Shown here piece by piece: positions 12,079 through 34,934 of a stretch of 39,885 nucleotides of DNA. The position numbers were made by a program, and so were the translations under genes. The notes below the pieces were generated by a model. It had not been told where the DNA came from. It made no database searches and saw nothing but the letters and a program-made list of their open reading frames with translations. Location: contig JAKLQT010000223.1 in NCBI GenBank assembly GCA_022013205.1, forward strand, positions 1 through 39,885, given 5' to 3'. Source of the DNA: Candidatus Omnitrophota bacterium. GTDB lineage: Bacteria; Omnitrophota; Gorgyraeia; B26-G9. The stretch's first letter is position 1. Each line of letters starts with the position of its first letter.

Positions 12079-12153
12079 GCAACATCCTTGTTCTACAAAT
12101 TTTAATCGGGATTTGGATCTATTATTCTTAATCAAAGTTGCTCCAGCAATTTG

Positions 12154-12255
12154 TTATTTTTTCTTTTTCTTAGCTACTGCCTTTTTTGCTGGTTTCTTAG
12201 CTACTGCCTTTTTTGCTACTTTCTTCTTTACTGCTTTTTTCTTTTTCACTACCAA
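12154..12255 (-). CDS. Candidate 33-aa lysine/alanine-rich (histone H1-like tail) micro-protein
   Basis: TTG at 12255 lies 5 nt after RBS AAGGGGGTGA and encodes MVVKKKKAVKKKVAKKAVAKKPAKKAVAKKKKK-stop. It contains a 27-bp tandem repeat, is below the ORF-track size cutoff, and is the antisense of the F-rich + ORF 12113..12388. Confidence 0.35.
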   Translation of the reverse strand: MVVKKKKAVKKKVAKKAVAKKPAKKAVAKKKKK

Positions 12256-12493
12256 AATATTCACCCCCTTTCCTATTAAATATTTACATCAGAAAATTGC
12301 TTCCCTGCTTCCCATACAATATCTTGGTGTGCCTAATTTATTCTACACAATATGGCCTCGTACTACATATTGTATTTACAATTTATAATATACAACATCA
12401 TATACTATGATTTCAAGGAAAAAAATAAAAAAAATAAAATTTTTTTTATTTTGGTGAAGATTTTAGAATATTTTTTTAAAATGGCAGGGTTTA

Positions 12494-13168: not shown

Positions 13169-13222
13169 TGTATCAATATAGGACTTTAAAGAATTCTCTT
13201 TAATGTTCTCACCTGTTTAATA

Positions 13223-20175: not shown

Positions 20176-21198
20176 TTATTCCAAAGCCAGCCCCGCGGCT
20201 ATCACTAGGTCCGGCAGGTTATCTTCGAATTCCTGCTGAGAAATATTAGAATCAAGATTAAACCTGCGGTTAAAAGTAAACCTTTTAACTTTTAGCCCTA
20301 AATTGCTTTCCAGCATTTTTTCCAGATTATACAAACGCAGGCTGCCGCCGCTGAAATATACAGCGCTTATTTCCTTACCCATCTCTTTTTTTATATATTG
20401 AAAGGAAATTTTTAACTCATTACATAAATTTTCCAGCACAATATTTACCAATCTATTAATATTTACATCTTCGTCCTGGATATTATACTTTATCGCTTCC
20501 GCGGTAGAATAAGTCAAATGCAATCTTTCTTCAACTATCTGGGTTATATCACGCCCTCCCCACAAAATATCCCGCGCGAATTGAGGGATTCCCTTGTTAA
20601 CTATAACAATATTTGTAAAGTAAGAGCCGATATTTATAAGCGCGGTAATCTTTTTATCTTCATTATGCTGCGTAAAATTAAACGCGTTCATTAATGCTAA
20701 AACATCAACATCTATAAACTGCGGTTCAAGCCCGGCATTTTTAACAATGTTTATACGTTCTTCAATAAAATCCTTTTTTGCCGCTACAAGAAGAACAACT
20801 AACTGCCTACCGCCAGGCCTCGCAATGGTTTCCAATATACGGCAGTCCCAAATGACTTCATTCGCCTTAAATGGGATATATTTATCCAGCTCCAAAAGTA
20901 ACGCCTCTTTTAATTCCGATCTGCGCATAAGAGGCATGCGTATAAATCTATACGAAACATTCGGCCCGCTAACGGCAATATTTACTTTTGTAGAACTTAT
21001 ACCCGTTTTCCTTAGAGTGTTTTTAATGATTCCCGAGATTTGAGCATTTGTCGCTTTTTCAGGGATATTGCTTTTAGCAAATGAAATCTTTTTTTTCTTG
21101 CTGAATTTTTCTGTTTTAAGGCCAACAATCTTGACGCTAAAATTACCGATATCCAAACCCAGGCCGCTTAAGGTATTATTTGGCTTAAAAATATTCAT
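20176..21198 (-). CDS. pilM: Type IV pilus assembly protein PilM (actin-like ATPase fold)
   Basis: 340 aa with GLDIGNFSVKIVGL (phosphate-1) and a later FSGGSLRL motif. The length and pattern fit PilM. Confidence 0.8.
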   Translation of the reverse strand: MNIFKPNNTLSGLGLDIGNFSVKIVGLKTEKFSKKKKISFAKSNIPEKATNAQISGIIKNTLRKTGISSTKVNIAVSGPNVSYRFIRMPLMRRSELKEALLLELDKYIPFKANEVIWDCRILETIARPGGRQLVVLLVAAKKDFIEERINIVKNAGLEPQFIDVDVLALMNAFNFTQHNEDKKITALINIGSYFTNIVIVNKGIPQFARDILWGGRDITQIVEERLHLTYSTAEAIKYNIQDEDVNINRLVNIVLENLCNELKISFQYIKKEMGKEISAVYFSGGSLRLYNLEKMLESNLGLKVKRFTFNRRFNLDSNISQQEFEDNLPDLVIAAGLALE

Positions 21199-21228
21199 TA
21201 TTATCTTTCTAAAAAAATATTCGAAATT

Positions 21229-21852
21229 TTATTGTGTTTTCTCAATGATATCAGGATTATCCAAATACTTCTTGTAATATTGACCTGATTTTTCTCTATC
21301 TTTTAAATTCTTATCATAAATTAACGCTAAATTATAATAGATTTGCCCATCGTCTTGGCCTTTATATAATTTTAACGCCAGATTATACGCCTTTATAGCA
21401 TCTTCATATCTTCCTACTTTCACGTAAAGGCAGCCTAAATTATAATACACATCCTTTTCCCGGGGCGCGTGTTTTAAAATCAACTCAAACTGAGCTATAG
21501 CCGAAATATAGTCCCCCTTCTCATAATATTGATAGCCCAGTTGATAATAAGCTCTTATTTGCCTGTTCTTTGTTTGTTCGCTGTGTTTTAATTTTTTATG
21601 TACGGGAGAGGATTTATTAGCCTTAGAATAACGCTTTTTATTTAGTAAATCAGCATCTGCTGTACTATCATCACTTTTTAACGAGCCGCAATCTATATTA
21701 AGAGACTTTAACAACGCCAAAAATTCCGCCTCTTCTTTATCCAATACTTGCTGCTTTTCTCTAATTACAGGCTCATTTTTCTCAGGCAACTGCCCGGCTC
21801 GGCATAAATTGATTAAAGATAAATAGATAAGTAAAAAAATCGACAAGCGCAT
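21229..21852 (-). CDS. TPR-repeat protein with N-terminal signal/anchor (possible PilF/PilW-like secretin partner)
   Basis: TPR repeats are present (AYYQLGYQYYEKGDYISAIAQFELILK, VYYNLGCLYVKVGRYEDAIKAYNLALK). I prefer the ATG at 21852 (MRLSIFLLIYLSLINLC); the track start at 21921 is GTG. The position after pilQ suggests, but does not prove, a pilotin role. Confidence 0.6.
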   Translation of the reverse strand: MRLSIFLLIYLSLINLCRAGQLPEKNEPVIREKQQVLDKEEAEFLALLKSLNIDCGSLKSDDSTADADLLNKKRYSKANKSSPVHKKLKHSEQTKNRQIRAYYQLGYQYYEKGDYISAIAQFELILKHAPREKDVYYNLGCLYVKVGRYEDAIKAYNLALKLYKGQDDGQIYYNLALIYDKNLKDREKSGQYYKKYLDNPDIIEKTQ

Positions 21853-21958
21853 GAAGAATAGAGCATTACGCCATTTATCCTTAATCTTAAGACTGTTCAA
21901 ACGATACCTCCATGTAATCACCTAAAAAGAAAAAGTTTATATCACAGGCTATCCTGTT

Positions 21959-23440
21959 TTATTTTAACGGACGCAAAGGGAAAGAATCCGCCGTTTCTGT
22001 ATTGCGATCTAAAATATTTTTGCGCTCATCTCTAATCGGATCAAACTTTTCCAAATTTACCTGTTCTCTAGGAGTTAATTGAACCTGATTAATTATAAAC
22101 GGAGTTACAAATATAAGTAATTCCGTATCCGTAGATGAATTGACCGTTTTTCTAAACAATTTGCCGATTAAAGGCAAATCACCTAAAATAGGCGTTTTAT
22201 CTATAGTGTCTGTTTTACTCTTCTTCCGCAATCCGCCAATAATAATCGTTTCACCGCTTTTCACCAGCAGGTTGGTTTCCGCCTTACGGGAATCGATAAT
22301 CGGCTGGTTTTCTATAGTTCCTGTCCTAAAACTCTGCTCGGTTTTTATAGTTAGAGATATAAAGCCGTCAGAACTAATAGTCGGAGTAACTTCAAGCTTT
22401 ATCCCCACATCCTTAAATGAAACTGTGGATGTTATTGATCCTGTTTCTGTGGATATCGTAGATTGAACATACGGAACCTGCTCAATAAGCTCTATTTTTG
22501 CCGTCAATCCATCTAAAGTCATTACCTTAGGATTTGCCAGTACCTCAGCTTTTTGAGTTTGGCTCCAGAAGTCAACAAGCGCGATTAATTCCGTGTTTTT
22601 ATAAATAGTTTTTCCGTATTTTATAATTCCTTCCACCCTGTCGGATCCTAAATTCTGCTGCGCCGACTTATCATTGTCACTATCCGCGTCATCCAATGAA
22701 TCTTTGTCTCCCAAGAGTAAATTTATCCCCAGCTGTTCATCTTCAGTAAGTTTCACATCCAGCATTAAGCCTTCGATTAAAACCTGCGGAGTGCGTTTAT
22801 CAAGTTCTTCTATAACCTTTATCATTTTTTGAATATTTTCCGCGTTATCGGTTATAATTAAACTATTTGTCTTTATATCAACAGAGATTTTTCCCCGTCC
22901 TGATCTCATCGAGTCAAGAGACCCTTTAATATTTTCGACATTGGCAAAATTCAAAAATACCACCTTTGATATTAAAGGGACCGTTGAATCTTCCATCTGC
23001 AATTCATTATATGTCAAAATTCTTAAAAAATTTTCCTCACGGATAGAAGCCAGGTTATATGTTTTTAAAATCATCTCCAGAGCTTTTTCCCAATTAGCGT
23101 TACTAACGCTTATCGAAACCTTACTTTTTACTTGTTCACTGATAACAATATTCAAACCGCTGACACGCGAAAACATTCTCGCAACATCTTTCATATCCAC
23201 ATCTTTTAAATCCAGATCAATTAAATCGCCTTCCTTTATATAAAATCCCGGGATTTTCTCAGATTGAGCAAAAGCCTGCTCAATCATAAAACACCCTTTA
23301 GATTTATTTGCCGTCTGCTTTAATGATACCGCACCAGCAGGGCAATCCGAAACATAATATTGCGGTTTTAATTTACCCATCAAAATTAAAGCCAGCATTA
23401 TCACCGCTAAAACAAATCCTTTATAACGGAATTTCTTCAA
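21959..23440 (-). CDS. pilQ: Type IV pilus / T2SS secretin PilQ
   Basis: 493 aa with a signal peptide, secretin N-domains and a C-terminal secretin core containing the PILGDLPLIGKLFR motif. Confidence 0.88.
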   Translation of the reverse strand: MKKFRYKGFVLAVIMLALILMGKLKPQYYVSDCPAGAVSLKQTANKSKGCFMIEQAFAQSEKIPGFYIKEGDLIDLDLKDVDMKDVARMFSRVSGLNIVISEQVKSKVSISVSNANWEKALEMILKTYNLASIREENFLRILTYNELQMEDSTVPLISKVVFLNFANVENIKGSLDSMRSGRGKISVDIKTNSLIITDNAENIQKMIKVIEELDKRTPQVLIEGLMLDVKLTEDEQLGINLLLGDKDSLDDADSDNDKSAQQNLGSDRVEGIIKYGKTIYKNTELIALVDFWSQTQKAEVLANPKVMTLDGLTAKIELIEQVPYVQSTISTETGSITSTVSFKDVGIKLEVTPTISSDGFISLTIKTEQSFRTGTIENQPIIDSRKAETNLLVKSGETIIIGGLRKKSKTDTIDKTPILGDLPLIGKLFRKTVNSSTDTELLIFVTPFIINQVQLTPREQVNLEKFDPIRDERKNILDRNTETADSFPLRPLK

Positions 23441-23515
23441 TCCTTTTCTCCTTTATATTTTTCTATTAATAAATCTTCTAAAGCCGGCAAGCCATTACAA
23501 AATATCCGCGGCTCT

Positions 23516-23932
23516 TTAAAATTTTTTAGCTTTTTCTTTTTCTATGAAAATTTCAAAACTAAAATTACCATATTTTAAAATCACTTTATCTTTTTTTATC
23601 TCTTCAACCTTTAAATCTTTCCAGGTATCTCCTTTTTGAACAAGTTCAGTATTTATAATCGCGATTGAATCTTCCTTTTTCCAGATAATCCCATTTAATT
23701 TCACGGAATAAGGCAATTTTAATACATCAAAAGATTCTTCCGCTATTTTTCCCTGCTCATTTAACGCGACAAAGGGATCCCTTTCTTCTTCCGTGAATGA
23801 TAACTCGATAGTATTATTCATTATAAGGCAAATTACCGGCAAAAACAATAAAAAACAGGCTTTTTTAACCGTTCCTAACCTGCTAAATTCATGCCGTGCT
23901 GGGATATTAACAATAAATTCATTAAACTTCAT
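23516..23932 (-). CDS. PilP-like / GspC-HR-like pilus assembly protein
   Basis: 138 aa with an N-terminal TM segment and a C-terminal beta-domain pattern (LNGIIWKKEDSIAIINTELVQKGDTW...VEEIKKDKVILKY). It sits between pilO and pilQ. Confidence 0.55.
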   Translation of the reverse strand: MKFNEFIVNIPARHEFSRLGTVKKACFLLFLPVICLIMNNTIELSFTEEERDPFVALNEQGKIAEESFDVLKLPYSVKLNGIIWKKEDSIAIINTELVQKGDTWKDLKVEEIKKDKVILKYGNFSFEIFIEKEKAKKF

Positions 23933-23975
23933 GCGAAAAGCATCCTTTTGTTTTTGATTTTTTAAACTTTATCAC

Positions 23976-24557
23976 TTATATTCTAAGTTTCGCGTTAAAA
24001 ACATTAAAAGTCATTTTTATATCATGAACTGTTGGATTTTTTGAATTTTTTTTAATTTCGAAAGTTTCTATTTTAAACAACTTCTTTGATTCTTCTACTC
24101 TTTTTAAAAATTTTAATAACTTTGGATAACTAGCTCTCATCTTAAAAACAACTGCCATCTGTTTCAAGGAAAACGGAGCATTTTCATAAAAATCATCTAT
24201 TGATTCTGACGATACCGGCTCAATAGAGCCAAATTCCAGCTCTAAATCCCTGCTTATCGCGATAATCTCTTTTACAACCAATGTTATATCTTCTTTAAAA
24301 AAAAGCATATCTGTATAAGACTCATGATATGTACCAGCCTCTTTGATTTCCTGCCTTAAACGCTCGTTCCCCTGGATAGTTTCCTGCCGGCGGGCAAGTT
24401 CTATCTGGCGTTCTTTTACCACGCCTCTTTGCGCCTTAAGCTGTTTAATCTCAGGGGAGATAACCACAAAAAAGAAAATCATAGCCCCAACAATTAGGGC
24501 TAAAACAATACCCAGATATAAATATACCTTCTCCTTATCTTCTAAATAAAAATTCAT
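23976..24557 (-). CDS. pilO: Pilus assembly protein PilO
   Basis: 193 aa with a single TM segment, a coiled-coil and a ferredoxin-like C-terminus. It sits directly after pilN. Confidence 0.65.
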   Translation of the reverse strand: MNFYLEDKEKVYLYLGIVLALIVGAMIFFFVVISPEIKQLKAQRGVVKERQIELARRQETIQGNERLRQEIKEAGTYHESYTDMLFFKEDITLVVKEIIAISRDLELEFGSIEPVSSESIDDFYENAPFSLKQMAVVFKMRASYPKLLKFLKRVEESKKLFKIETFEIKKNSKNPTVHDIKMTFNVFNAKLRI

Positions 24558-24566
24558 ATCTTTTCT

Positions 24567-25193
24567 CTATTCTTTTAAATCCATTTTTATTTTAAAATTT
24601 ATCATATGCTCTTCAGCTTTGCTGCCTTTTCTTAAGTCAAGCATAGTTAAATCCTTAAAGTTTTGATAAAAATCTTTACTTTCCTTGATGTCCTCAATAA
24701 ATCTATTTATTTTTAAAAGTATTTCATCGTCGGTACTCAAAAAACCCACATGAGCGGAAAGCCGCAACGACCTTTTAAATTTCATATTATCATTCAGCTG
24801 CGCCCGGTTATCTTCTTTTTCTAATACTAATTCCTCAAACCACATTTCTATTGGCGTAATTTTAATCAGCTGATTGAATCTTTCCGACCAAAAAATATCC
24901 CGGCTTAAAATCCTGCGTAAAAAAATAACCGCTTCTTCAGCTTCTTTTTTTTGTTCCAGCAAATTACCGCGTTCTTTAACCAATTCTTCCGTAGCTTTCC
25001 ACGAGGCTTCAATTCCTGCCAATTCCACTTTTATTTCATCCAGCTTTGAGCTAAGAACCAGCCGCCATGCCAACAAAAAAACAGTAATTACAACAGCCGC
25101 CAAAATAAGCCTTGCTATTTCAGGCGTTATTATTAAAAACTGCCTGTTTTTTTTTACCTGCAATTCCTCGGGCAAAAGATTTATTAAACGCAT
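24567..25193 (-). CDS. pilN: Pilus assembly protein PilN
   Basis: 208 aa with the N-terminal MRLINLLPEE motif (the PilM-binding peptide typical of PilN), followed by a TM segment and a coiled-coil. Confidence 0.75.
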   Translation of the reverse strand: MRLINLLPEELQVKKNRQFLIITPEIARLILAAVVITVFLLAWRLVLSSKLDEIKVELAGIEASWKATEELVKERGNLLEQKKEAEEAVIFLRRILSRDIFWSERFNQLIKITPIEMWFEELVLEKEDNRAQLNDNMKFKRSLRLSAHVGFLSTDDEILLKINRFIEDIKESKDFYQNFKDLTMLDLRKGSKAEEHMINFKIKMDLKE

Positions 25194-25245: not shown

Positions 25246-26007
25246 TTACTCTATGGTAATCCCGTTCAATTCGACATCTGCGTTCGTGCCTATAGTTACA
25301 GCACCTGAAATAACTGTTGGATAATCCGCGACAGAGCGTGTTATAAAAGAGGGGTCATATCCTCCCCTGATTTTATAACATTGGTATACACCGGGTGAGA
25401 TAAGAATATTTTCCTCTAACTTTGTCATCGTAATGGCTATTTCATCACTATCCTGCGCCTCATCAACCGCCTCTTGCAGAGATGAATACAAAATACTTTG
25501 CGTGAGATTTTTAATCGGATACCAAAGAGCCAACTGCTCTAAAATCTTCTGCGTACCGTCAGATGCCGTTCCTGTAGAGCGCAGGAACATACGCTTATCA
25601 TAAAAATCCCACGGGATAGACCCGCCGGAAGGATCTTTTTGCAGATAATCAATTTCCACAGTATAAAAACCATCCGCTATAGCCTGATTAGCATATAAGG
25701 TATAAAAAGCGTCCGGGGCATTAACATCAGGCGCCGTTACCGCATCTTTATTGATCTGGCCGTCAAGCCAAGAATCACTGTCTAAATACAAATTCAGCAT
25801 CGCCCTTTCTAATCCGGCTTTAGCAAAAAATACCGCCGCCTGCACCTGCTTTTCTTTCTGCAGATTCTTCTGATCATAAAGAGCGAGAAAAGTGTGGCTG
25901 GATAAATAAATCATAACCACAACAATTACTAAAATCACATTAATTAAAATCATGCCGCTATTTGAATTTATTAACGGCTTATATTTAATTGTCTTTTCCG
26001 TTTTCAT
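25246..26007 (-). CDS. PilX/GspK-like minor pseudopilin with beta-helix-cap-like C-terminus
   Basis: 253 aa with an N-terminal hydrophobic helix (SGMILINVILVIVVVM) lacking the G-F-T-L-x-E site. The C-terminus SLQEAVDEAQDSDEIAI...GGYDP...TVISGAVTIGTNADVELNGITIE resembles the first rungs of right-handed beta-helix proteins. Confidence 0.55.
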   Translation of the reverse strand: MKTEKTIKYKPLINSNSGMILINVILVIVVVMIYLSSHTFLALYDQKNLQKEKQVQAAVFFAKAGLERAMLNLYLDSDSWLDGQINKDAVTAPDVNAPDAFYTLYANQAIADGFYTVEIDYLQKDPSGGSIPWDFYDKRMFLRSTGTASDGTQKILEQLALWYPIKNLTQSILYSSLQEAVDEAQDSDEIAITMTKLEENILISPGVYQCYKIRGGYDPSFITRSVADYPTVISGAVTIGTNADVELNGITIE

Positions 26008-26014
26008 CTGTTTT

Positions 26015-26638
26015 TCAGTTTTCCAAATAAACCAAGGCTGTATTCGACAAACTTATATCATGCCTGTCCGGGCCCTGTTTTCGCGCCGTACTTGTAATTT
26101 TTATACTGCCGAAGGGAACAGCTGCATCCAGCATAGGATCCGCAAACTGCAAATCAATAACCCTATATGCTATCTGTTGTTCACTGCCTGCGGCCGGAGA
26201 AAACGCCGCGTCTAAAATATCCCGCAATAAAAATTCACCTGTGGCGTCTAACCGATACCTTATATAATAATCCGCCGTACCGTCTGCACCCCATATTACA
26301 TTATAACCATTATCTAATCCAATTGGTATCTGAAAATAAATAATATCTGAACCATTTATTCCCGCCCCGTCCTGAATAGTAGTTTTTAGCGCTAAATTCG
26401 ATTCTTTCAATTCATTCGATATTGAGGAGATTACCCTCTGATTTTGCCGGTATAAATCTATCTGTATTCGTATCAGCCCGTTATATATATCATTTGTTCT
26501 TAACGCCGAATAAGCTATCCCCATAATAATAGAAAATATACCAAGCGCGACCATCATTTCGGCCAGGGTAAACCCGGTTCTTACTTTTATAAACCGATGC
26601 TTACGGATAACTGAAATCAATTGAAACTGGTCTCCCAT
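26015..26638 (-). CDS. Prepilin-type N-terminal cleavage/methylation domain protein (minor pseudopilin)
   Basis: 207 aa with a leader MGDQFQLISVIRKHRFIKVRTG, then FTLAEMMVALGIFSIIMGIAY (class III signal with Glu at +5). Confidence 0.8.
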   Translation of the reverse strand: MGDQFQLISVIRKHRFIKVRTGFTLAEMMVALGIFSIIMGIAYSALRTNDIYNGLIRIQIDLYRQNQRVISSISNELKESNLALKTTIQDGAGINGSDIIYFQIPIGLDNGYNVIWGADGTADYYIRYRLDATGEFLLRDILDAAFSPAAGSEQQIAYRVIDLQFADPMLDAAVPFGSIKITSTARKQGPDRHDISLSNTALVYLEN

Positions 26639-26691
26639 AATCTTTCTATCCTGCCGATTTAAATTTTCATAACTTTCTATTAATTTTTAAG

Positions 26692-28158
26692 TTACGGCCC
26701 GCCCAAATATATTTTTCCCAGTTTATCTTTATCCGTAATAAGCTCCAAAAACTTAACCGGCGAATCTATTTCTCCATTACTATTTATATCTTCTCCGGCA
26801 TCAAGGGCACCATTAAAATTCGTATCCTCACCGATAATTCGGCCGCTCTTATCCTGCCAGCAAAAACTAATTACTGCCTCTAAGAGCCGATTATAACCCG
26901 CGCAGGACCAAACATCGTTGCTTATACCCACCCCATCAATATTCCCTCCCATTACCCACAATATATTATTATAAACTAAAGCGAGAAAACTTTGTCTTGG
27001 CCCCCAGGAAGCAGCAGCTGCTGCTTCAGTCCAATATACTCCATCAGTAGAATACCATACATCATCCTTAAACGGGCCAGAACTTGTTCCTCCGATCACC
27101 CACATTTTATTATCATAAACCACTGCTTCATGACTCATTCTTTGATCCCACCCGGCACTTGCCGTTGCCTGCGTCCAGGTTATGCCGTCAGAAGAATACC
27201 AAACGTCATTTGTTCCGCCAAAAAAATTACCTCCAAGATGCCACATCTTATTATTATAAACCAAAGAAGCATGTAAATTTCTTTGTCCCCAGGCAGCTGC
27301 TGCTGTCGCTTGAGTCCATGTAATTCCATCCGAAGAATACCACACATCACTAAAGATTCCCGCGGAATTGCCTCCCAACACCCACATTTTATCATCATAG
27401 GCCAAAGCGGTATGAGCGCTTCTTGCCGGCCAGGCCGCCGCTGCTGTTGCCATTACCCAGTTTACCCCATCCGTAGAATACCAGACATCATTTAAAAAAA
27501 TAGAGGCAGCATTTACCCCCCCCATCACCCACATCTTATTGTCATAAACTAAGCAGGTAAACCCTGCTCTTTTCTGCCAATTCGCTGAAGGTGTTGCTTG
27601 CAGCCAGGTTATACCGTCAGAGGAATACCACACATCTCCCTTTACCGTAGGGATAGGCCCTGAACTGCCTCCCATTATCCACATCTTATTATCGTAAACC
27701 ACACCCCCGAAATTAATTCTTTCTACCCAGGACGGATCAGCAATAACCAAATTTTCCCCGCCTCCATAAAGTGCGGGCCTATCAATTAATTCTATATTTC
27801 CCTTGCCGGTTAAGCCTGTAATATCAAAGGTATTTCCCGGGGTTCCGCCAGAGACATAATCAACCATTATTTTGTCAAAATCATGCGCTTTAATCTGTTC
27901 TAATATGTTTTTTACCTCGTTAGCGGCAAGATGAGTATCCCGGCTTTGCTCGCTCAAATTAAGCGTTTTATTAAAAGTGCTTAAAAAAGCGGCTAAAACA
28001 GATATTAATATCGCGCTGGATACCAAAAGTTCAATAAGGGTGAAACCTCTCCTTATTTTTATAACCTGATACGCGCGGATATCTGAAATAATTTGAAACT
28101 TGTTAAAATTTGTTAAAATTTGTTGTTTGAAATTCGATGAAAATTTATTGAGATTCAT
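26692..28158 (-). CDS. Pseudopilin fused to a six-blade Kelch-like beta-propeller and two EF-hand-like loops
   Basis: I use the ATG at 28158; the track start at 28212 is TTG. The leader MNLNKFSSNFKQQILTNFNKFQIISDIRAYQVIKIRRG is followed by FTLIELLVSSAIL. Six repeats follow of the form YDNKMW.(M/L)GG....DVWYS.DG..W...a..A.W..R, then DTNFNGALD and DINSNGEID. Confidence 0.8.
   Translation of the reverse strand: MNLNKFSSNFKQQILTNFNKFQIISDIRAYQVIKIRRGFTLIELLVSSAILISVLAAFLSTFNKTLNLSEQSRDTHLAANEVKNILEQIKAHDFDKIMVDYVSGGTPGNTFDITGLTGKGNIELIDRPALYGGGENLVIADPSWVERINFGGVVYDNKMWIMGGSSGPIPTVKGDVWYSSDGITWLQATPSANWQKRAGFTCLVYDNKMWVMGGVNAASIFLNDVWYSTDGVNWVMATAAAAWPARSAHTALAYDDKMWVLGGNSAGIFSDVWYSSDGITWTQATAAAAWGQRNLHASLVYNNKMWHLGGNFFGGTNDVWYSSDGITWTQATASAGWDQRMSHEAVVYDNKMWVIGGTSSGPFKDDVWYSTDGVYWTEAAAAASWGPRQSFLALVYNNILWVMGGNIDGVGISNDVWSCAGYNRLLEAVISFCWQDKSGRIIGEDTNFNGALDAGEDINSNGEIDSPVKFLELITDKDKLGKIYLGGP
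26902..27720. repeat. Six tandem about 145-bp coding repeats (Kelch-like blades)
   Basis: Repeated DNA and peptide units are visible, e.g. gatgtgtggtattc... coding DVWYSSDGITW four or more times. This periodicity explains the antisense shadow ORFs at 26992-27495. Confidence 0.85.
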
Positions 28159-28187
28159 GAAATTTATTGTCCTTTGCGTTATAATCC

Positions 28188-28210
28188 TTTTTATTCTCAC
28201 ACAAAGCCGC
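28188..28210. repeat. Copy B of the 23-bp exact repeat, left arm of an imperfect inverted repeat spanning the pilC-pseudopilin spacer
   Basis: Identical to 11373-11395. In addition, attctcacacaaagcc (28193-28208) matches the reverse complement of gtctttgtgtgattat (28365-28380) at 13 of 16 positions. Confidence 0.75.
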
Positions 28211-28438
28211 AAAGATCACAGAGTTTTTATTCAACATCTTTGTTTACCCAGATAGAGAACGGTTACCTGAGACAACCGTCAAAGTCTTAAGATGAATTAT
28301 CTCTAATGAGGTTTATAATGCTTAAATCCTGCCTTTTGTTTTCTGCCCTTCTTTGTGCCTTGGTGTCTTTGTGTGATTATTTTATTTATTTTTCTATTTC
28401 AACCAATTTCCATAAATTTCAATGCGTTTCTAATATTA

Positions 28439-29638
28439 TCAGCCTCCTATAATTTCTGTCATCTTCAATATCGGCAAAAACATGGCCACAACGATTCCTC
28501 CGACAACTAAGCCGAGGAAAATTATAATAAACGGCTCGATTAAAGACATCATATTATTCACCGTCGCGTCTACCTGGTCTTCATAAAAAAAACCTATTTT
28601 AGTAAGCATAAGTTCCAATTCCCCGCTTTCCTCTCCTACCCCGATCATTTCCACAACCATTTGAGTGAAAACACCTTCTTTACTTAATTGCAAAGCGATT
28701 CTTTCTCCTTTGCTTACTTGATCTCTTACCCTAATAATTGCCGCCTCAATAACGCTATTGTCAACCGTAGAGGACACTATATCCAACGCGTTTAATATAG
28801 GTATGCCGCTTTTTAAAAGAGTCGCTAAGGTCTGGCTAAAACGCGCGATGATTAATTTTTGAAAAAGAGCTCCAAATACCGGCAATTTTAATTTAAAAGC
28901 ATCAAAATTTATTCTCCCCTTTGGAGTTCTAATATAATTACCGATTCCCGCCAAAGCAAGCCCTATCCCGATAATAACTACTAATACATATTTTCGCATT
29001 ACATTACTGAAATCGATCAAAAGCTGTGTAGGCAAGGGTAATCGCGTGTTTAAGGAATTAAAAATTTCCTCAAACCCGGGAATAACTTTAAAAATCAGAA
29101 ACGACACAATTATTACAGCTACGATAATAATTGCCGCCGGATAAACTAATGCTGATTTTACACGATTGACAATCTTATTATTCTTTTCTATATAACTCGC
29201 CAGGCGCTCAAGGATTTCATTCAAAGCGCCGCTTGTTTCCCCGGCGTTGACCATACGCGTATACAGCGAAGCAAAAACACGCGGATAATTCCCCAGGGCG
29301 TCTGAAAGGCTGCTGCCTGATTCGATCAAATTACGAATATCAACAGATATTTCACGCATTTCCCCGTTTTTAAACTGTCCGGATAAAATAGTCAACCCTT
29401 TTGTTAAAGGAATACCCGCTCCTACCAAAGTAGAAAGCTGGCGGAAAAACAAAGCTAGTTGCTCTTCATTAACTTTTTTAGCTTTAACCCCTCGCTTTGA
29501 GTCCCCTTTACCAACAGAGAGAACCACCAGATTTTGCTGCCGTAGAATAACCATCGCTTCCTGAGCGTCCTTGGCAATAATGCTTCCGGTTTTGCCCTTT
29601 CCTGATACTTCTTTAGCTTTATAACTAAATGTAGGCAT
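28439..29638 (-). CDS. pilC: Type IV pilus / T2SS inner-membrane platform protein PilC/GspF
   Basis: 399 aa with the duplicated GspF domain architecture and three TM segments (motifs LSTLVGAGIPL / LATLLKSGIPIL). Confidence 0.9.
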   Translation of the reverse strand: MPTFSYKAKEVSGKGKTGSIIAKDAQEAMVILRQQNLVVLSVGKGDSKRGVKAKKVNEEQLALFFRQLSTLVGAGIPLTKGLTILSGQFKNGEMREISVDIRNLIESGSSLSDALGNYPRVFASLYTRMVNAGETSGALNEILERLASYIEKNNKIVNRVKSALVYPAAIIIVAVIIVSFLIFKVIPGFEEIFNSLNTRLPLPTQLLIDFSNVMRKYVLVVIIGIGLALAGIGNYIRTPKGRINFDAFKLKLPVFGALFQKLIIARFSQTLATLLKSGIPILNALDIVSSTVDNSVIEAAIIRVRDQVSKGERIALQLSKEGVFTQMVVEMIGVGEESGELELMLTKIGFFYEDQVDATVNNMMSLIEPFIIIFLGLVVGGIVVAMFLPILKMTEIIGG

Positions 29639-29639
29639 T

Positions 29640-31460
29640 TTAGTTGTCCGCGTATCCTGTCTCTACCCAGGCTGTACCATTCCAAATTAACATTAAAATA
29701 TCGTTTTGATATAAATCTAAAGGATTAGTATGTAATCTTGTACTCGCATCCGTGCTCAGGCGAACCATAAAGGCTGTTGTGTTTTCAAGGATAAGAATAT
29801 CTCCCGCGGACTTGCCAGCAGCGATACCAGGACTGCCTAAACTAACATCTCCGAGAGGGGAAAGCCGGAGATAACTGGTCGGGCCATCAGGTGTTAAGGT
29901 ACTCCCATTTACCAGTCCCGTATAACCGCTTCCCGGCTCTAAGGTAATCCTGGTTTTGTCAGTATATTGGGTGTTAATGCCATTATCATAAACAGGCGCA
30001 GCATAAATAGAACCGCTAAAAGTCCCTGTTATCATATTGCCGTTTAGGTAGTTATCAGAACCGCTCCATAACCTGATTCCATTTTCAACAGCAGCTAAGG
30101 AATTCATAATGCGATTACTGGTAATAATATTTTTACTGCCAGTGATATATATATTGGATCTCTCCCCGCCGCTGCCGTTATTGTCAAAAATAATATTCCC
30201 AGCTATAACATTGGCATTACTGTCAGACAGTCTAATCCCCTTATAAGTATTATTTGCGATAGTGTTTCCTGAAATTAAATTATACCCATAAAGAAGTATT
30301 GTTTCACTGCAAAAAGTTTCATCTATCCAGCATCCTCTTTCTAACCCAATACCATTTCCGATATTTGAACTAATATAATTATTACAAACAACGTTAAAAA
30401 CGCTATAGTATAAGTTTATCCCATTCCCATTATTAGCCTGGATAATATTATTTAAAATAATATTATTCCTGGCTTGCTCGCCAGAACCATCTATATTAAT
30501 ACCGGTTCCCCCATTTTGAATAATATTATCCGAGATAGTGTTGTAATTAAAGCGAGCCGCGCAGCCCGCGGAGTTTGTTTTCGCATATATACCACCCTTA
30601 GAATTATCAGTTATAATATTGTTTGAAATAACCTGATAATATATATAATAATTTGAATAAGTATAAATGCCATAACCAGCATTATAACCTATATTGTTAT
30701 CGGTAATAATATTTCCATAACTGGGCCCGCTGCCGCTGTTAATAATAATACCGGTTCCGTTCATATCCTCAATCCACACATTATTAATCTTTGAATAATA
30801 AGCCGCATGCAGATGTATACCGTTATTATTTGTTCCTGTTTGACTGTTTCCATCAATCATAAGCTGCGAAATTAAAATCCCGTCTATTAAATACACATAA
30901 ATTGCGCTAACACTACTTGCTCCAGACGCAATCTTTAATACCGTTCCTTTTCCTGTTCCGATTATCGCCTTTCCAGAATCATCAGGCGCGGTACTATCCA
31001 GATTTATTGAAGCAGAGATATTATAGGTTCCTTCTAAAAGATACACTGCTCCTCCGTTTGTCCCTAAATCATCAATCGCGGCTTGAATCTCTACCTGGTC
31101 ATCTGTGCCGTCGCAGACATAGTCTGCCCTGGTTGTATCCACTGAATCTGACGCGGCAACGATTCTGGCTACTATCGCGGCATCATCGCCCCCTGCGCTT
31201 GAAAATTCCTGCCATGCTGTCCCATCATAATAATACGGTTTATCATCATTATCGTCATAATATACCTGCCCTTCCGCGGGAGATGACGGCGCTGGATCCT
31301 GCGGATTAAAAATCAATGTTTCACTTCGTACATCAGCCGGAACTTCAAGCCGGGCGAAAACCTGTCCACAGTCAAAAGTCAGAAGTCCATAGCTGACAGC
31401 TAATAGCCAAAAGAAAAGAGTTCTGAGTTTTGAGTGATGAGTTATAAGTTTTGAGTTCAT
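29640..31460 (-). CDS. Secreted right-handed parallel beta-helix protein, paralog P1 (pectate-lyase-3 / tailspike-like cap, conserved C-terminal domain)
   Basis: 606 aa with a Sec signal (LLAVSYGLLTFDCGQVFA), RADYVCDGTDDQVEIQAAIDDLGTNGGAVYLLEGTYNISASINLD, many NNII.DN-type rungs and a C-terminus ...LIWNGTAWVETGYADN. The stop is 1 nt from the pilC ATG. Confidence 0.8.
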   Translation of the reverse strand: MNSKLITHHSKLRTLFFWLLAVSYGLLTFDCGQVFARLEVPADVRSETLIFNPQDPAPSSPAEGQVYYDDNDDKPYYYDGTAWQEFSSAGGDDAAIVARIVAASDSVDTTRADYVCDGTDDQVEIQAAIDDLGTNGGAVYLLEGTYNISASINLDSTAPDDSGKAIIGTGKGTVLKIASGASSVSAIYVYLIDGILISQLMIDGNSQTGTNNNGIHLHAAYYSKINNVWIEDMNGTGIIINSGSGPSYGNIITDNNIGYNAGYGIYTYSNYYIYYQVISNNIITDNSKGGIYAKTNSAGCAARFNYNTISDNIIQNGGTGINIDGSGEQARNNIILNNIIQANNGNGINLYYSVFNVVCNNYISSNIGNGIGLERGCWIDETFCSETILLYGYNLISGNTIANNTYKGIRLSDSNANVIAGNIIFDNNGSGGERSNIYITGSKNIITSNRIMNSLAAVENGIRLWSGSDNYLNGNMITGTFSGSIYAAPVYDNGINTQYTDKTRITLEPGSGYTGLVNGSTLTPDGPTSYLRLSPLGDVSLGSPGIAAGKSAGDILILENTTAFMVRLSTDASTRLHTNPLDLYQNDILMLIWNGTAWVETGYADN

Positions 31461-31611: not shown

Positions 31612-31956
31612 TTACTTGTAATCACTAATCCAGATTAACCGGCCTTTTACCTTTTCTAAAGAAGCGGCTGCTAAAAATTTAAGCAGCCGTCTTAAAAGTA
31701 AAGAAAAAGAAGTCTGGTTGCTTAATATTATTCCAAAATGCGCGCCCTTCAATTTTTTATGCAGCTTAGCAAAATCTTTTATATTATGAGTTAGAATCGC
31801 CCTCTTTTCTTTTATGGCCATCCTTAATTGCGCTTCATCAGATAAACCAAAGAGCCTTTTTTCAATACAACTCATTACATCATAACCCCTGATTCTTAAG
31901 ACTTCAGCTAATAAAGGCCTTATGTCTTCATCTAGATAAATTTTTACTTTTTCCAT
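31612..31956 (-). CDS. DUF5615-family (PIN-like) putative toxin
   Basis: 114 aa, starting MEKVKIYLDEDIRPLLAEVLRIRGYDV... It overlaps the upstream DUF433 gene by 13 nt, a typical TA arrangement. Confidence 0.65.
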   Translation of the reverse strand: MEKVKIYLDEDIRPLLAEVLRIRGYDVMSCIEKRLFGLSDEAQLRMAIKEKRAILTHNIKDFAKLHKKLKGAHFGIILSNQTSFSLLLRRLLKFLAAASLEKVKGRLIWISDYK

Positions 31957-32210
31957 ATTTCCTCTTTTTGTTTTTCAAGTAAAGCCTCGATTTCTTCTTT
32001 ATGGTCATAATAATAAGAAAGGGCATCGTAAATAGCTGCTAAAGAAAGTTGAGGAAACTCTTTAACCAATTCTTCCGGCAGCATTCCTTCTTTAATTATG
32101 TAAAATACGATTGACCTTGCCGGAAAACGTGTACCCTTAATAATCGGCTCTCCTCCTTGAATTTTAATATCATGGGTTATATAGCAATGATTCATAAAAG
32201 TCTTGGCCAT
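31944..32210 (-). CDS. DUF433-family putative antitoxin
   Basis: 88 aa. The segment IQGGEPIIKGTRFPARSIVFYIIKEGMLPEELVKEFPQLSLAAIYDALSYY matches the DUF433 pattern from memory. RBS is GGAGG. Confidence 0.7.
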   Translation of the reverse strand: MAKTFMNHCYITHDIKIQGGEPIIKGTRFPARSIVFYIIKEGMLPEELVKEFPQLSLAAIYDALSYYYDHKEEIEALLEKQKEEIWKK

Positions 32211-32260: not shown

Positions 32261-34054
32261 TTAATTATCCGTCCACTTCATCTCCAGCCATCTGGTTCCG
32301 TTCCAGATTAATTTCAGCATATCATTTTCCCCTAAGCAGCGGCTTGCGCCTAAGCTCACATTTGCGCCATCAGGAACAGTCACGGTATTGGTATTATCAG
32401 TCCCCTCCAAAATCAGGATATCACCGGCAGCCTTGCCATTAGCAATAGCTGTAACCGCGTTTAACGTTACCGCTGAAGCAGGGCTTAACGGTACATATCC
32501 CTTAGGATTTGTGCTTACATCTAAGGTGCTGCCCGCGGCAGGGATAACCGCTGTCTGCCGCTCTATAGTAATCTTTTCTTTCTGAGTGTATTTGGTATTG
32601 GTGCCGGAGTCGTTGATCCTTCTATCATAACCCGCGCCGATATTTCCCGCGCCGTCGATAAGGTTACCGATAAGATAGTTATTACCGCAGGTATTACTCC
32701 CTATATTTATCCCATAACCTGTTCCCGCGGAATCGAAGATTCTATTTGACGAGATAATATTATTATGCCCCCATAAGCTCCATACCCCGCTATAAATTCC
32801 ATCTTCGATGTTTTCGTAAATAATGTTCTGCGTAATTAAGTTAAAAGAACCGCTCATTAATATTCCCCGCCCACTATTAGAAACTACATTTTTAGAAATA
32901 ACACCACACTGAGTTCCACACAATACTCCGATACCGTTGGTATTATTAGAAACATTATTTCCAACCACAACACTATACCGGCAGTAACTAGCAAGATTAA
33001 TGCCAAAACTACTGTTAAAATTCACATTATTATCTATAATAATGTTGTTGTAATCATTTCCGCAGTAACCATCAAGGTTAATTCCGCTAGCTCCATTGGA
33101 ACAAATGCTGTTATTGGAAATTACATTATTTTTAAAACCTGCGCCGCCATAAGTATAAGTCTGTATCCCGCTGTAGCTATTATTACTTATAACATTCTGA
33201 GAGATAATATTGTTATCCACACTTGATCCGGTTACTCCTCCCCCGAATGTATTATAAATACCTCGCTTATTAAATTGGATATGATTATTAATAATTATAT
33301 TATATTTAGCACCTTGATTATATCCAATAGTAATACCAGTTCCACTCATATTTTCTATCCAAACACCAGCAATTTTTGAATAATCAGTTTTATTAAGCAG
33401 CAAACCTGTAACTTCACTCCCTAACTTAGAGTTTCCATCAATCATTAGGTTAGTAATTAAAATTTTATTCACATAATAAGTCTTAATAACACCCGTGGAA
33501 CCTATAGCCGCCGCTAATTTTAACACCGACCCTTTGCCTGTTCCAATTATTGATTTATTTGAATCATCTGGCGCAACATTATCCAGATTTATAGAGGCGC
33601 TTATATTAAAGGTTCCCTCCATTAGATACACTGCCCCGCCAACTGTCCCCAGATCATCAATCGCGGCTTGAATCTCTACCTGGTCATCCGTGCCGTCGCA
33701 GATATAGTCTGCTCTGGAAGTATCCAGGGAATTAGAAGCAGCAACAATCCTGCTCGCTGCTGTTTTCGGGCCGCTGCCTGCGCCAAATCCCTGCCAGGCG
33801 GTGCCGTCAAAATATTTCATGAGTTTTCCTGTAGAGTTATAAAACAGCTCTCCTTCTAAAGGCGCAGCCGGATAATCCGCCACGTCACCGGTAAAGGTTA
33901 TGGAATCCGCCTTTATATTTTCTTTTACAGTCAAATGGTCATCTGAGGCGAAAGCCGGCCCGCAGTTAACAGCTAATAGCCCATAGCTGATAGCCAATAG
34001 ACAAAAGAAAAAGATTCTGTGTATTGAATTCTGAGTTATAAGTTTTACGTTCAT
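32261..34054 (-). CDS. Secreted right-handed parallel beta-helix protein, paralog P2
   Basis: 597 aa with the same architecture as P1 and P3. Its ATG overlaps the TGA of the upstream nucleotidyltransferase gene (ATGA). Confidence 0.8.
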   Translation of the reverse strand: MNVKLITQNSIHRIFFFCLLAISYGLLAVNCGPAFASDDHLTVKENIKADSITFTGDVADYPAAPLEGELFYNSTGKLMKYFDGTAWQGFGAGSGPKTAASRIVAASNSLDTSRADYICDGTDDQVEIQAAIDDLGTVGGAVYLMEGTFNISASINLDNVAPDDSNKSIIGTGKGSVLKLAAAIGSTGVIKTYYVNKILITNLMIDGNSKLGSEVTGLLLNKTDYSKIAGVWIENMSGTGITIGYNQGAKYNIIINNHIQFNKRGIYNTFGGGVTGSSVDNNIISQNVISNNSYSGIQTYTYGGAGFKNNVISNNSICSNGASGINLDGYCGNDYNNIIIDNNVNFNSSFGINLASYCRYSVVVGNNVSNNTNGIGVLCGTQCGVISKNVVSNSGRGILMSGSFNLITQNIIYENIEDGIYSGVWSLWGHNNIISSNRIFDSAGTGYGINIGSNTCGNNYLIGNLIDGAGNIGAGYDRRINDSGTNTKYTQKEKITIERQTAVIPAAGSTLDVSTNPKGYVPLSPASAVTLNAVTAIANGKAAGDILILEGTDNTNTVTVPDGANVSLGASRCLGENDMLKLIWNGTRWLEMKWTDN

Positions 34055-34683
34055 TTTAGGTTATTACCCGCTATTCTTTTAATTTCGCTTTCAAAAAATC
34101 TCTTTACTTCTTCCCATTCGCAGGGCTTAAGCATCTTAGGCATCGGGTCTTTTTCTGCATCCTCAAAATAGACCAAACTTTTCATAATATGTACAGAGGT
34201 AGTGGCTAGGTTTTTATATTTTTTATCATAAAGCCGAATAGCCTCATCCAATGATATGCCCTCCTGACAAATAAAATAAAAATCAATAAAGTCTCTCTTA
34301 ACGCCTCTAGACGCAATCGCGGCAATTTTCATCGCCGCGATATCGCGGATATCTATAATATTAACCTTTCCAAATTTTTTTGTAGAGTAAAGAAGAGGAT
34401 ATTCGTAATAAAATATACTAAAGCGCACGCCTTCAAAGTTACCTAAAATTGTTCTCCAGGCAATTCTCTCTAATTTGAATTTAGAAATTTCTTTAAGCTT
34501 TGGGAGAAGGTTAGTTTCATTAAATTCATCGGTGGTAAAAAAATCTAAGTCATAAGATATGCGGTGCCCGAGTTGTAAGGCTAAGGCAGTTCCGCCTGCT
34601 AAATAGGCCTTTTGGATAATCTCGCTTCTCTCTAATAAGGCCAAAATTGCTTTTGTATTTCCTGGAAGGACATGTTTAAACAT
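34051..34683 (-). CDS. AbiEii/AbiGii-type nucleotidyltransferase toxin family protein (DUF1814-like)
   Basis: 210 aa with the YLAGGTALALQLGHRISYDLDFFT motif typical of this NTase family. Confidence 0.7.
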   Translation of the reverse strand: MFKHVLPGNTKAILALLERSEIIQKAYLAGGTALALQLGHRISYDLDFFTTDEFNETNLLPKLKEISKFKLERIAWRTILGNFEGVRFSIFYYEYPLLYSTKKFGKVNIIDIRDIAAMKIAAIASRGVKRDFIDFYFICQEGISLDEAIRLYDKKYKNLATTSVHIMKSLVYFEDAEKDPMPKMLKPCEWEEVKRFFESEIKRIAGNNLK

Positions 34684-34934
34684 TTTACCTCTTCTTTCTT
34701 ACAATTTAAAATAAGCGCCCAGAAATTAGCGCTCTTTCCAGACAATCCCCTGCTTTTTTGTAAAGCGTAAATAATTTGGGAGCGTGAGAAATTCCTCAAC
34801 ATCCAATTAATAGCCCGTTTATCGCCATATTCAAAAATACGTTCGATAGTATATCGGGGATAATTTTCATAATCCAATGCTTCAAAGTCTATATCCCAAA
34901 AATACTCCTTTAAAAATTTAGGCGGTTTTTTCAT
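34632..34934 (-). CDS. Small partner protein of the NTase (putative antitoxin; resembles the DUF6922-type family from memory)
   Basis: 100 aa, including FWDIDFEALDYENYPRYTIERIFEYGDKRAINWMLRNF...SGKSANFWALIL. It overlaps the NTase gene by 52 nt. Confidence 0.55.
   Translation of the reverse strand: MKKPPKFLKEYFWDIDFEALDYENYPRYTIERIFEYGDKRAINWMLRNFSRSQIIYALQKSRGLSGKSANFWALILNCKKEEVKCLNMSFQEIQKQFWPY

Follow-up and report, generated by a model that had tools for sequence, protein, structure and literature searches.

A prepilin with an inserted Kelch propeller in a filament gene cluster of Omnitrophota

The Kelch pilin gene and its parts

The stretch of DNA analysed here, referred to as the window, comprises 39,885 nucleotides (nt) of a Candidatus Omnitrophota bacterium (contig JAKLQT010000223.1). 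On its minus strand, among genes for a filament assembly machinery, it encodes a protein of 488 amino acids (aa) that combines a prepilin signal with a Kelch beta-propeller and is termed the Kelch pilin below. Positions 26692-28158 form one unbroken open reading frame (ORF) of 488 codons by the ORF list and its translation, with an ATG start at 28158; an in-frame TTG upstream at 28212 is also possible. An exact-sequence look-up showed this very protein to be absent from a collection of 15 billion proteins. The parts of the gene are as follows, with confidence in the AlphaFold2 (AF2) model given as the predicted local distance difference test score (pLDDT):

26692..28158, minus strand: whole gene, prepilin with inserted Kelch propeller, 488 aa plus stop (ORF list, translation, Pfam N_methyl and Kelch families, full-length homologues)
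28045..28158, minus strand: leader peptide, residues 1-38, ending RRG (sequence; direct repeat D3; pLDDT < 50)
27757..28044, minus strand: N-terminal half of the pilin module, residues 39-134, with alpha1 (41-90), a short helix and strand 117-126 (AF2; aligns with propeller-less pilins)
26902..27756, minus strand: six-blade Kelch beta-propeller, residues 135-419, 24 strands (Pfam PF24681, PF01344 and PF24981; AF2 pLDDT 90-98; Foldseek; PDB profile)
26692..26901, minus strand: C-terminal half of the pilin module, residues 420-488, with strands 425-435 and 468-475 and the calcium-type loops between them (AF2; aligns with propeller-less pilins)
26764..26826, minus strand: two tandem EF-hand-like loops, DTNFNGALDAGE and DINSNGEID, residues 445-465 (sequence; conservation; pLDDT 88-91)

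The prepilin site reads IKIRRG/FTLIELLV, with Glu at +5 (E43) and a mature start of FTLIELLVSSAILISVLAAF. The elements of a class III signal are all present in RRG/FTLIELLVSSAILISVLAAFL, namely Gly, Phe at +1, Glu at +5 and a hydrophobic stretch. N_methyl (PF07963) is matched at 22.0 bits (Pfam cut-off 21.2) and TIGR02532 at 22.1 bits (NCBIfam cut-off 16.3), both of which bear out the prepilin signal, RRG then FTLIELLV, that the original prediction had read from the letters of this DNA. E43 is invariant in 21 of 21 aligned family members. The AF2 model, built on these 21 members, has a mean pLDDT of 88.8 and a predicted template modelling score of 0.77. It shows a lollipop topology, with a 50-residue alpha1 (41-90) and strands 117-126, 425-435 and 468-475.

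A closed six-blade Kelch propeller

Six Kelch repeats of 47-50 aa each were identified in the protein, with KMW anchors at residues 158, 208, 257, 304, 351 and 399 and DVW anchors at 175, 224, 271, 318, 366 and 415. Three Pfam families are matched: PF24681 (E=2e-23, 83.3 bits, cut-off 50), Kelch_1 (PF01344; E=1.7e-21, 75.8 bits, cut-off 20.1) and PF24981 (53.4 bits, cut-off 50). In the AF2 model, the propeller consists of six blades of four strands each, and its N-terminal strand (135-139) closes blade 6. The six tandem blades counted in the original prediction are borne out by the anchors, the Pfam families and the model alike.

Comparisons with the PDB covered the phmmer matches at E<=0.01 (25 matches), the best 60 of 108 matches of a family profile at E<=10 and the Foldseek top 50. 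Foldseek placed the model alongside LZTR1 (9mez, TMt 0.79-0.80) and KLHDC2 (6do3, TMt 0.75) over 315-325 columns. Its top ranks hold six-blade Kelch domains only, including designed SAKe propellers, with 290-335 aligned columns. The sequence searches, whether made with the protein itself or with the family profile, returned Kelch proteins only among the matches listed. As both kinds of search give Kelch, the propeller is regarded as closed and canonical, which is the outcome of the structure prediction and Foldseek check that had been proposed for it. No PilY1 chain occurs among the 25 phmmer matches, the best 60 of 108 profile matches or the Foldseek top 50, and the PilY1/PilC family of Pfam (Neisseria_PilC, IPR008707) was not matched at E<=0.01. 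The suggestion of a PilY1-like module finds no support in these results. Among phage families, no PHROG match was found for the Kelch pilin.

The blades share 57-67% nucleotide identity (codon-aligned) and 37-67% amino-acid identity, and the longest exact run common to them is 14 nt. Tandem Repeats Finder reported no array over the blades, and a general repeat search gave copies at 63-77% identity. With 57-67% identity in DNA, the blades have diverged too far for slippage to occur or for homologous recombination to be efficient. It had been claimed that they are very similar at the DNA level and that their number may be unstable for this reason; the similarity is not borne out, and the instability finds no support.

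A family of Kelch pilins

Full-length homologues were identified in about 20 clusters, all with the order N-pilin, propeller, C-pilin, at 35-54% identity and 92-98% coverage. A search for pilin-propeller fusions in related genomes, as had been advised, thus proved fruitful. One homologue, from a metagenome-assembled genome (MAG) labelled Elusimicrobia, has the NCBI name 'prepilin-type N-terminal cleavage/methylation domain-containing protein'. The closest locus in GTDB species representatives is in a Candidatus Omnitrophota MAG, the downstream genes of which are 47-78% identical to those of the window, which fits the origin of the window in this phylum. Five blades are present in four homologues (P0017, P0036, P0073 and P0080) and six in the others; this variation is evolutionary and does not show that blade number is unstable within a population.

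Genes rich in repeats are easily misassembled in metagenomes, and the gene could in principle be an artefact in which a separate pilin N-terminus and a separate Kelch gene were joined by frameshift or misassembly. This is exceedingly improbable. About 20 proteins of independent assemblies share the order N-pilin, propeller, C-pilin, a pilin domain with its halves on either side of the propeller could not arise by a simple join, and the blades are too divergent in DNA (57-67%) for assembly collapse. The possibility that such an error separates the pilin signal from the repeats, raised in the original prediction, is excluded by the recurrence of the architecture in these independent homologues.

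The propeller is inserted in a small pilin domain

Rather than being fused to one end, the propeller, about 295 residues in all, is inserted in the beta-hairpin turn of a small pilin domain. A profile of the family from which the propeller had been removed (16 members) detected at least 604 pilins, mostly of 150-170 aa, that align over both flanks of the propeller. Of the best 120 propeller-less matches, nearly all are 147-217 aa long; they are 31-47% identical to the deleted construct over 93% of its length, and those bearing a source name are prepilin-type or type II secretion proteins of Candidatus Omnitrophota/Omnitrophica. A joint alignment (A5) opens just one gap for the entire propeller (about residues 127-421); it is flanked by TGKGxIYID and LLxIxVVVxW, and in the short pilins these two segments form the arms of a beta-hairpin. 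In the Kelch pilin the propeller separates strand 117-126, the first long one, from strand 425-435, which comes next, and the segment C-terminal to it (beginning GYNRLLEAVISFCWQDKSGRIIGEDTNFNGALDAGEDINSNGEIDSPVKF) resembles the remainder of the pilin domain. The AF2 model of a propeller-less member (pLDDT 90.2) has its helix and strands in the same order as the Kelch pilin. In the favoured reading, the turn that received the insertion is on the outer face of the pilin domain. The propeller had been described as fused to a pilin N-terminus, as if on a stalk: the covalent joining holds, and the end-to-end arrangement gives way to the insertion.

Two calcium-type loops belong to the carrier pilin

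The two loops noted in the original prediction, DTNFNGALD and DINSNGEID, are exactly where it placed them (26764-26826, residues 445-465). They follow the propeller (135-419) and are located on the long connection of strands 425-435 and 468-475. Loop 1 (DTNFNGALDAGE) matches EF-hand positions 1, 3, 5, 6, 9 and 12 and has Phe at position 4, a residue that the PROSITE pattern PS00018 excludes there. Loop 2 (DINSNGEIDSPV) has no acidic residue at position 12, its DINSNGEID portion being 9 residues long. Neither loop is flanked by helices in the AF2 model. The pattern GED-x-N-L-N-G-x-L-D-x-G-E-D-x-N-x-N-G-x-x-D-S is invariant or nearly so in 44 propeller-less pilins and in alignment A5, and the loops are thus an old feature of the carrier pilin that has nothing to do with the propeller. 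On this sequence comparison, they are taken to predate the propeller insertion and to belong to the ancestral pilin module. An EF-hand-like calcium site within the propeller, as had been implied, is therefore not what these loops represent.

GspG reportedly has a calcium site in its C-terminal region, and the calcium loop of GspG/PulG is said to be needed for the stability of pseudopilins that are without the disulphide of type IV pilins. By analogy, the loops of the Kelch pilin most likely bind calcium and stabilise the C-terminal beta-hairpin as the GspG/PulG site does.

In a different reading, the protein would be a PilY1-like calcium-responsive adhesin, with the EF-hand-like sites controlling adhesion or pilus extension and retraction from the tip. 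PilY1 has EF-hand-like loops of nine residues and of the DxDxDGxxD type; its calcium loop is reportedly of this length, as is DINSNGEID. Both loops are well formed and modelled at a pLDDT of about 90, with ligand positions 1, 3, 5, 9 and 12 present in DTNFNGALDAGE. A propeller on a pilus-tip protein would also be functionally analogous to PilY1 (PMC8179133). This reading is nonetheless quite unlikely. The loops reside in the pilin module and appear older than the insertion, the propeller is a six-blade Kelch domain, and the PilY1/PilC family or chain is in none of the match lists. Furthermore, the cluster is without a PilT-type retraction ATPase, and the loops are missing from four family members. 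A structural role for the putative calcium loops is the economical inference and a PilY1-type switch is probably not involved. Of the calcium-responsive adhesin at the fibre tip that had been envisaged, the tip or near-tip position is plausible and the PilY1-type role of calcium is not upheld.

The filament gene cluster

The Kelch pilin is part of a type IV filament gene cluster encoded entirely on the minus strand, in the order: two ATPases, three beta-helix genes, GspF/PilC, Kelch pilin, a second prepilin (pilin2), a PilX/GspK-like protein, a PilN-like protein, PilO, a GspC/T2SSB-like protein, a secretin, a TPR protein and PilM. The filament genes other than the Kelch pilin are:

38745-39827, minus strand: PilB/GspE-type assembly ATPase, possibly cut by the window end (Pfam T2SSE; NCBIfam PilB and GspE far above PilT)
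36982-38652, minus strand: PilB/GspE-type assembly ATPase, longer, with MshEN domain (Pfam T2SSE; NCBIfam PilB and GspE far above PilT)
28439..29638, minus strand: GspF/PilC platform protein, directly upstream of the Kelch pilin (Pfam T2SSF E=2e-60; TIGR02120 381 bits)
26015..26638, minus strand: second prepilin (pilin2), 207 aa, RTG/FTLAEMMV (Pfam N_methyl E=1.5e-7; synteny; E=3e-11 to gene 2 of propeller-less triads)
25246..26007, minus strand: third pilin-like gene, 253 aa, PilX/GspK-like, hydrophobic N-terminus without Glu5 (synteny; N-terminal 62 aa, E=3e-4)
20176..25193, minus strand: assembly machinery as a whole, PilN-like to PilM, downstream of the triad; its six genes, which follow, were identified by Pfam and NCBIfam and keep their order in related loci
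24567-25193, minus strand: PilN-like protein
23976-24557, minus strand: PilO
23516-23932, minus strand: small GspC/T2SSB-like protein
21959-23440, minus strand: secretin
21229-21921, minus strand: TPR protein
20176-21198, minus strand: PilM

The Kelch pilin, pilin2 and the PilX-like protein form a triad. In a tblastn panel of all retrieved loci, 13 Kelch-pilin loci extend far enough downstream to show the triad, and 12 of them have this order. As to deviations, the three genes are ordered differently in L003, the PilX-like gene of L002 lies at another place within the cluster, and L009 has no PilX-like match. Near-duplicate loci were collapsed (L001 with L007, L004 with L023, L011 with L012 and L008 with L025), and the synteny samples are small. 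The propeller-less relatives head the same kind of triad in all three loci available, consisting of the pilin, a pilin of about 180-220 aa and a PilX_N/DUF4900 protein of 500-600 aa. In one of these (L015), separate small pilins (128 and 155 aa) precede the triad, and PilMNO and a secretin follow it. Homology between the two types of triad extends to genes 2 and 3 (E=3e-11 and 3e-4); the third gene of the propeller-less triad is matched by the N-terminal 62 aa of the 25246-26007 protein, and the counterpart in L013 bears PilX_N. The third gene encodes about 240-250 aa in Kelch clusters and 500-600 aa in propeller-less triads (25246-26007 compared with L013 11235-12743 and L015 5106-6893); the bulky module would seem to be borne by a different subunit in each triad type.

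The best NCBIfam matches of the Kelch pilin are the minor pilins GspI, ComGE and PilV, rather than GspG or PilA, all of them sub-threshold and limited to alpha1. GspG itself was not matched, either as Pfam T2SSG at E<=0.01 or as NCBIfam GspG at E<=1. These results bear on the proposal of a short pseudopilus of the type II secretion system (T2SS) kind, in which the Kelch pilin, in the position of GspG, would be the major subunit and every subunit of the piston would carry a propeller. GspG is reported to have a C-terminal calcium site too, Glu5 is invariant, gspF is followed by the Kelch pilin in the window and in L010, L011, L018, L020, L021 and L022, and the 40-kb window contains no other candidate for a major pilin, a scan of it for prepilin motifs having found none besides the Kelch pilin and pilin2. 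Set against this are the missing GspG matches and the propeller-less relatives, which head a minor-pilin triad ending in a PilX_N protein and, in L015, occur alongside separate small pilins. By analogy with ComZ, moreover, a shaft with a propeller of about 45 Å per subunit would be far wider than the secretin channel. A major-subunit role is accordingly held to be rather improbable.

Large non-filament proteins with class III signals are known from the Bas system of Sulfolobus, and the prepilin signal of the Kelch pilin could likewise serve for export or anchoring only, the protein being a periplasmic or surface binder that is never polymerised, like the sugar-binding proteins of the archaeal bindosome. 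The ATPases have weak matches to bindosome BasE, among many others, and the 38-aa leader is unusually long, with leaders fused to a helix-turn-helix (HTH) in relatives. On the other side, the bindosome scores are far below those for PilB and GspE, Glu5 is invariant, alpha1 is canonical, and the gene has a fixed place in a three-gene pilin set beside PilMNO and a secretin. An anchored, unpolymerised binder is thus very improbable.

Leaders and regulatory features

The N-terminal part of the 38-aa leader is of low complexity and modelled at low confidence. Besides the start at 28158, no in-frame ATG, GTG or TTG occurs in the leader of the Kelch pilin before the cleavage site. AT-rich short tandem repeats (periods of 10 nt and 19 nt) were observed at 28096-28169, within the region coding for the first half of the leader (NFKQQILTNFNKF). 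The last 18 or so leader residues are paralogous to the leader of pilin2: a direct repeat (D3; 28022-28103 and 26550-26631, 72% over 82 nt) spans the leader and the start of the mature protein of both prepilin genes. In a related MAG (L005, 130-300 and 1700-1900), about 130 nt upstream of both prepilin genes are nearly identical, including the leader MTYDCELVTNK. The common leaders suggest a duplicated cassette of regulatory and leader sequence, or gene conversion.

A gene of about 72 aa for a MerR-like HTH protein was seen in related clusters, stand-alone at L001 3424-3639 and L004 4124-4351; it was looked for in the window and is absent. In three divergent homologues (P0020, at L002 10001-11557, P0026 and P0034), this HTH and the leader of the Kelch prepilin form an in-frame fusion, and two of the three have an internal Met. 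Cleavage by prepilin peptidase would then free a cytoplasmic DNA-binding domain, which could be regulatory coupling; a miscall of the start codon could also account for the fusion.

Two related loci (L003 and L010) add a stand-alone MshEN protein, a giant GGDEF-AAA_16 protein (1268-1348 aa) and a PilZ protein, and these genes point to control by cyclic di-GMP. Scans of 25900-28700 for sigma-70 promoters and terminators gave results at chance level. A candidate sigma-54 promoter (GGCAGG-N6-GCA near 28316-28332) was rejected: it was not within the 3-mismatch matches, of which the window has 50 and shuffles 80. A dip in guanine-plus-cytosine content (0.317 compared with about 0.40) at 12001-13200 surrounds a GAF-ANTAR regulator gene (12494-13168), downstream of which is a glutamine amidotransferase-type gene; the dip is unrelated to the Kelch pilin.

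Beta-helix exoprotein genes

Between the ATPases and the platform protein lie three paralogous genes for beta-helix proteins with Sec signals (Pfam NosD, Beta_helix and Phage_depo_C; N-terminal signal sequences):

35047-36828, minus strand: beta-helix protein
32261-34054, minus strand: beta-helix protein
29640-31460, minus strand: beta-helix protein

Phage_depo_C is matched at 25-37 bits, and the proteins have weak matches to PHROG tail and tailspike families. Of 11 informative distinct loci, 10 have such paralogues, usually exactly three, beside the Kelch-pilin cluster, and none of the three loci with propeller-less triads has any nearby (Fisher probability about 0.01 for 10/1 and 0/3, in a small sample).

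Loci with such paralogues alongside the Kelch cluster include L001, L002, L003, L004, L009 and L021. They have in common an N-terminal YYDGTAWQ.F motif and a C-terminal end of the form WNGT.W.E....DN. The N-terminal motifs suggest three orthologous types (A, B and C) kept in the same order across genomes; an attempt to assign positional orthology by BLAST bit scores was abandoned, its matrix being noisy. Toxin-antitoxin modules were observed between the beta-helix genes of the window (34051-34934 and 31612-32210): AbiEii with DUF6922, and DUF5615/Mut7-C with a partner ORF of 88 aa. Other loci have HEPN/nucleotidyltransferase, HicAB and DUF2283/DUF4258 modules in such places (L003 2191-3552; L009 3616-4879, 6661-7204 and 9076-9781). 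The differing modules suggest either repeated landing at one kind of site or an association under selection.

In a further reading, the Kelch pilin would be the adaptor of a hitherto undescribed pilus-borne device for attack or attachment in host-dependent Omnitrophota. The propeller would take up the beta-helix spikes in the periplasm and carry them at the tip of a type IV filament through the secretin, presenting or delivering polysaccharide-degrading spikes; the A, B and C paralogues would possibly form a hetero-oligomer. Such a device would combine T2SS cargo loading with a phage-tailspike-like tool used on a partner or prey cell. The proposal is doubtful.

A tip-complex minor pilin as the favoured reading

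The reading favoured here, to which a probability of about 0.6 is given, is that the Kelch pilin is a modular minor pilin of the tip complex that displays its propeller as a binding head. The reasons are that minor-pilin sets prime assembly and come to lie at the tip, and that a rigid propeller of about 30 kDa is hard to fit on a shaft that passes through the secretin. The carrier is a small pilin of a family common in Omnitrophota, encoded by the first gene of a set of pilin, pilin and PilX/GspK-like protein that resembles GspI-J-K or PilV-W-X. Its alpha1 would place the prepilin in the inner membrane, where prepilin peptidase would cut after Gly38. Together with the two downstream pilin-like proteins, it would then nucleate a fibre assembled by the GspE/GspF/PilMNO/secretin machinery and end at or just beneath the fibre tip, where the propeller would serve as the binding head.

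Two candidates for the ligand stand out. By analogy with CofB and CofJ, the three co-encoded tailspike-like beta-helix exoproteins are one, the pilin being a cargo or display adaptor for them; this is favoured by their tight linkage. The other is a glycan or protein on the surface of a partner or prey cell. It is favoured by the wide use of this type of Kelch domain in extracellular multidomain proteins, as seen in a sequence search, and by the proposed attachment of Omnitrophota by pili: the type IVa pili of this phylum have been proposed to attach to host cells (PMC10066038).

A number of observations weigh against a tip-complex minor pilin. The argument for a tip or near-tip position is a steric one, made by analogy with ComZ. 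The cluster has no major pilin gene, and the Kelch pilin directly follows gspF, the place of gspG in classical T2SS operons; no gene for a prepilin peptidase or PilT was seen in the window. For GspI (TIGR01707) the score is 24.9 bits (cut-off 44.35), over residues 38-90 (alpha1) only. One locus, L010, has a complete cluster and no beta-helix genes within 18.8 kb. Four Kelch-bearing members (P0032, P0040, P0049 and P0069) are without the calcium-type loops, which are therefore not essential to the design. Finally, a Foldseek search of the PDB with the model of a propeller-less pilin gave no significant match (best E=1.8), so the pilin subfamily could not be assigned in this way and the lollipop fold is called from topology. 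The probable reason for the missing match is the poor alignment of full-length lollipop models with crystal structures, which are truncated. A PDB profile search with the propeller-deleted alignment was likewise uninformative as to subfamily, as it returned only the generic alpha1 of PilE/PilA-type pilins (E about 2e-3).

Comparison with known systems

Modular pilins were defined by Raynaud et al. 2021 (PMC8179133), whose survey comprises over 1,200 such proteins of 264 architectures; Dataset S1 of that paper tabulates, without description, a single N_methyl plus Kelch_1 protein (IPR012902-IPR006652). With N_methyl and Kelch in one protein, the Kelch pilin is a modular pilin in the sense of Raynaud et al. 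2021. Among the papers searched, no link of Kelch repeats with prepilins or pseudopilins was found. Modular pilins explain many functions from simple fibres, and very few have been examined, almost none of them in uncultured phyla. Comparable in design are PilB (vWA) and PilC (lectin) of Streptococcus sanguinis, in which a small pilin also carries a bulky ligand-binding module and which are predicted to be minor pilins of the tip (PMC8179133, PMC9934059). In these the module is attached to the C-terminus by a short linker, whereas in the Kelch pilin it is inside the pilin domain. They belong to a monoderm host and their adhesion was shown by experiment, while the Kelch pilin is from an uncultured diderm and known from its sequence.

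Propeller-bearing proteins of the pilus tip are represented by PilY1/PilC of type IVa pili (PMC8179133). PilY1 is not a pilin, however; its propeller is of another family (IPR008707) and contains the calcium site, while the loops of the Kelch pilin are in the pilin module. The analysis thereby corrects a tempting but wrong call of homology to PilY1. GspG/PulG resemble the Kelch pilin in having a calcium-type loop in the C-terminal beta-region of a pseudopilin, calcium binding by the Kelch pilin being putative; the latter has two tandem DxNxNGxxD loops in place of the GspG site, and no sequence match to GspG.

The adaptor role considered above has its parallel in CofB/TcpB of type IVb pili, large minor pilins of the tip that serve as adaptors for the co-encoded secreted proteins CofJ/TcpF (PMC8179133). 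In the Kelch cluster, this putative parallel consists of the linkage to three Sec-dependent beta-helix proteins. CofB has additional C-terminal domains, a beta-repeat and a beta-sandwich, and is a homotrimer. Omnitrophota are thought to attach to or prey on other cells using type IV pili (PMC10066038), and the near-constant linkage of the Kelch pilin to three tailspike-like exoproteins offers a concrete and testable candidate for the molecule that makes contact. This conserved partnership in Omnitrophota is new, as is the recognition of the calcium loops as a feature of the carrier; at the system level, the association with beta-helix genes is unexplored.

The triad recalls GspI-J-K, likewise a set of three pilin-like genes, one of which has a large domain inserted in the pilin beta-sheet, the third member lacking Glu5 and the set having a proposed role at the pseudopilus tip (PMC8179133, PMC6561018). 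In the T2SS, the insert is the alpha-domain of GspK, encoded by the third gene, whereas in the Kelch cluster it is a beta-propeller encoded by the first. Equivalents of GspG and GspH are absent from the Kelch cluster, and the similarity to GspI is sub-threshold and confined to alpha1.

Domain insertion in the pilin sheet was thus already known, from the alpha-domain of GspK and the beta-solenoid of ComZ, as were modular pilins; the Kelch passenger as a conserved family is new, and so is an insertion point mapped with an abundant insert-free sister family. Hundreds of propeller-less pilins and the Kelch-bearing ones form a natural before-and-after pair with an exact insertion point, which is useful for understanding and engineering which pilin loops tolerate a 30-kDa passenger. 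ComZ, a minor pilin of competence in Thermus thermophilus, is alike in that its gene lies beside that of a partner minor pilin and in the steric argument for the tip, as the fibre must pass the secretin (PMC6561018). No sequence similarity of ComZ and the Kelch pilin was found. ComZ is without a canonical prepilin motif, while the Kelch pilin has one, and its insert is a DNA-binding beta-solenoid of about 380 residues between the last two strands (PMC6561018), compared with a propeller between strands 117-126 and 425-435. After ComZ, the Kelch pilin is the second case of an all-beta domain inserted inside the pilin fold.

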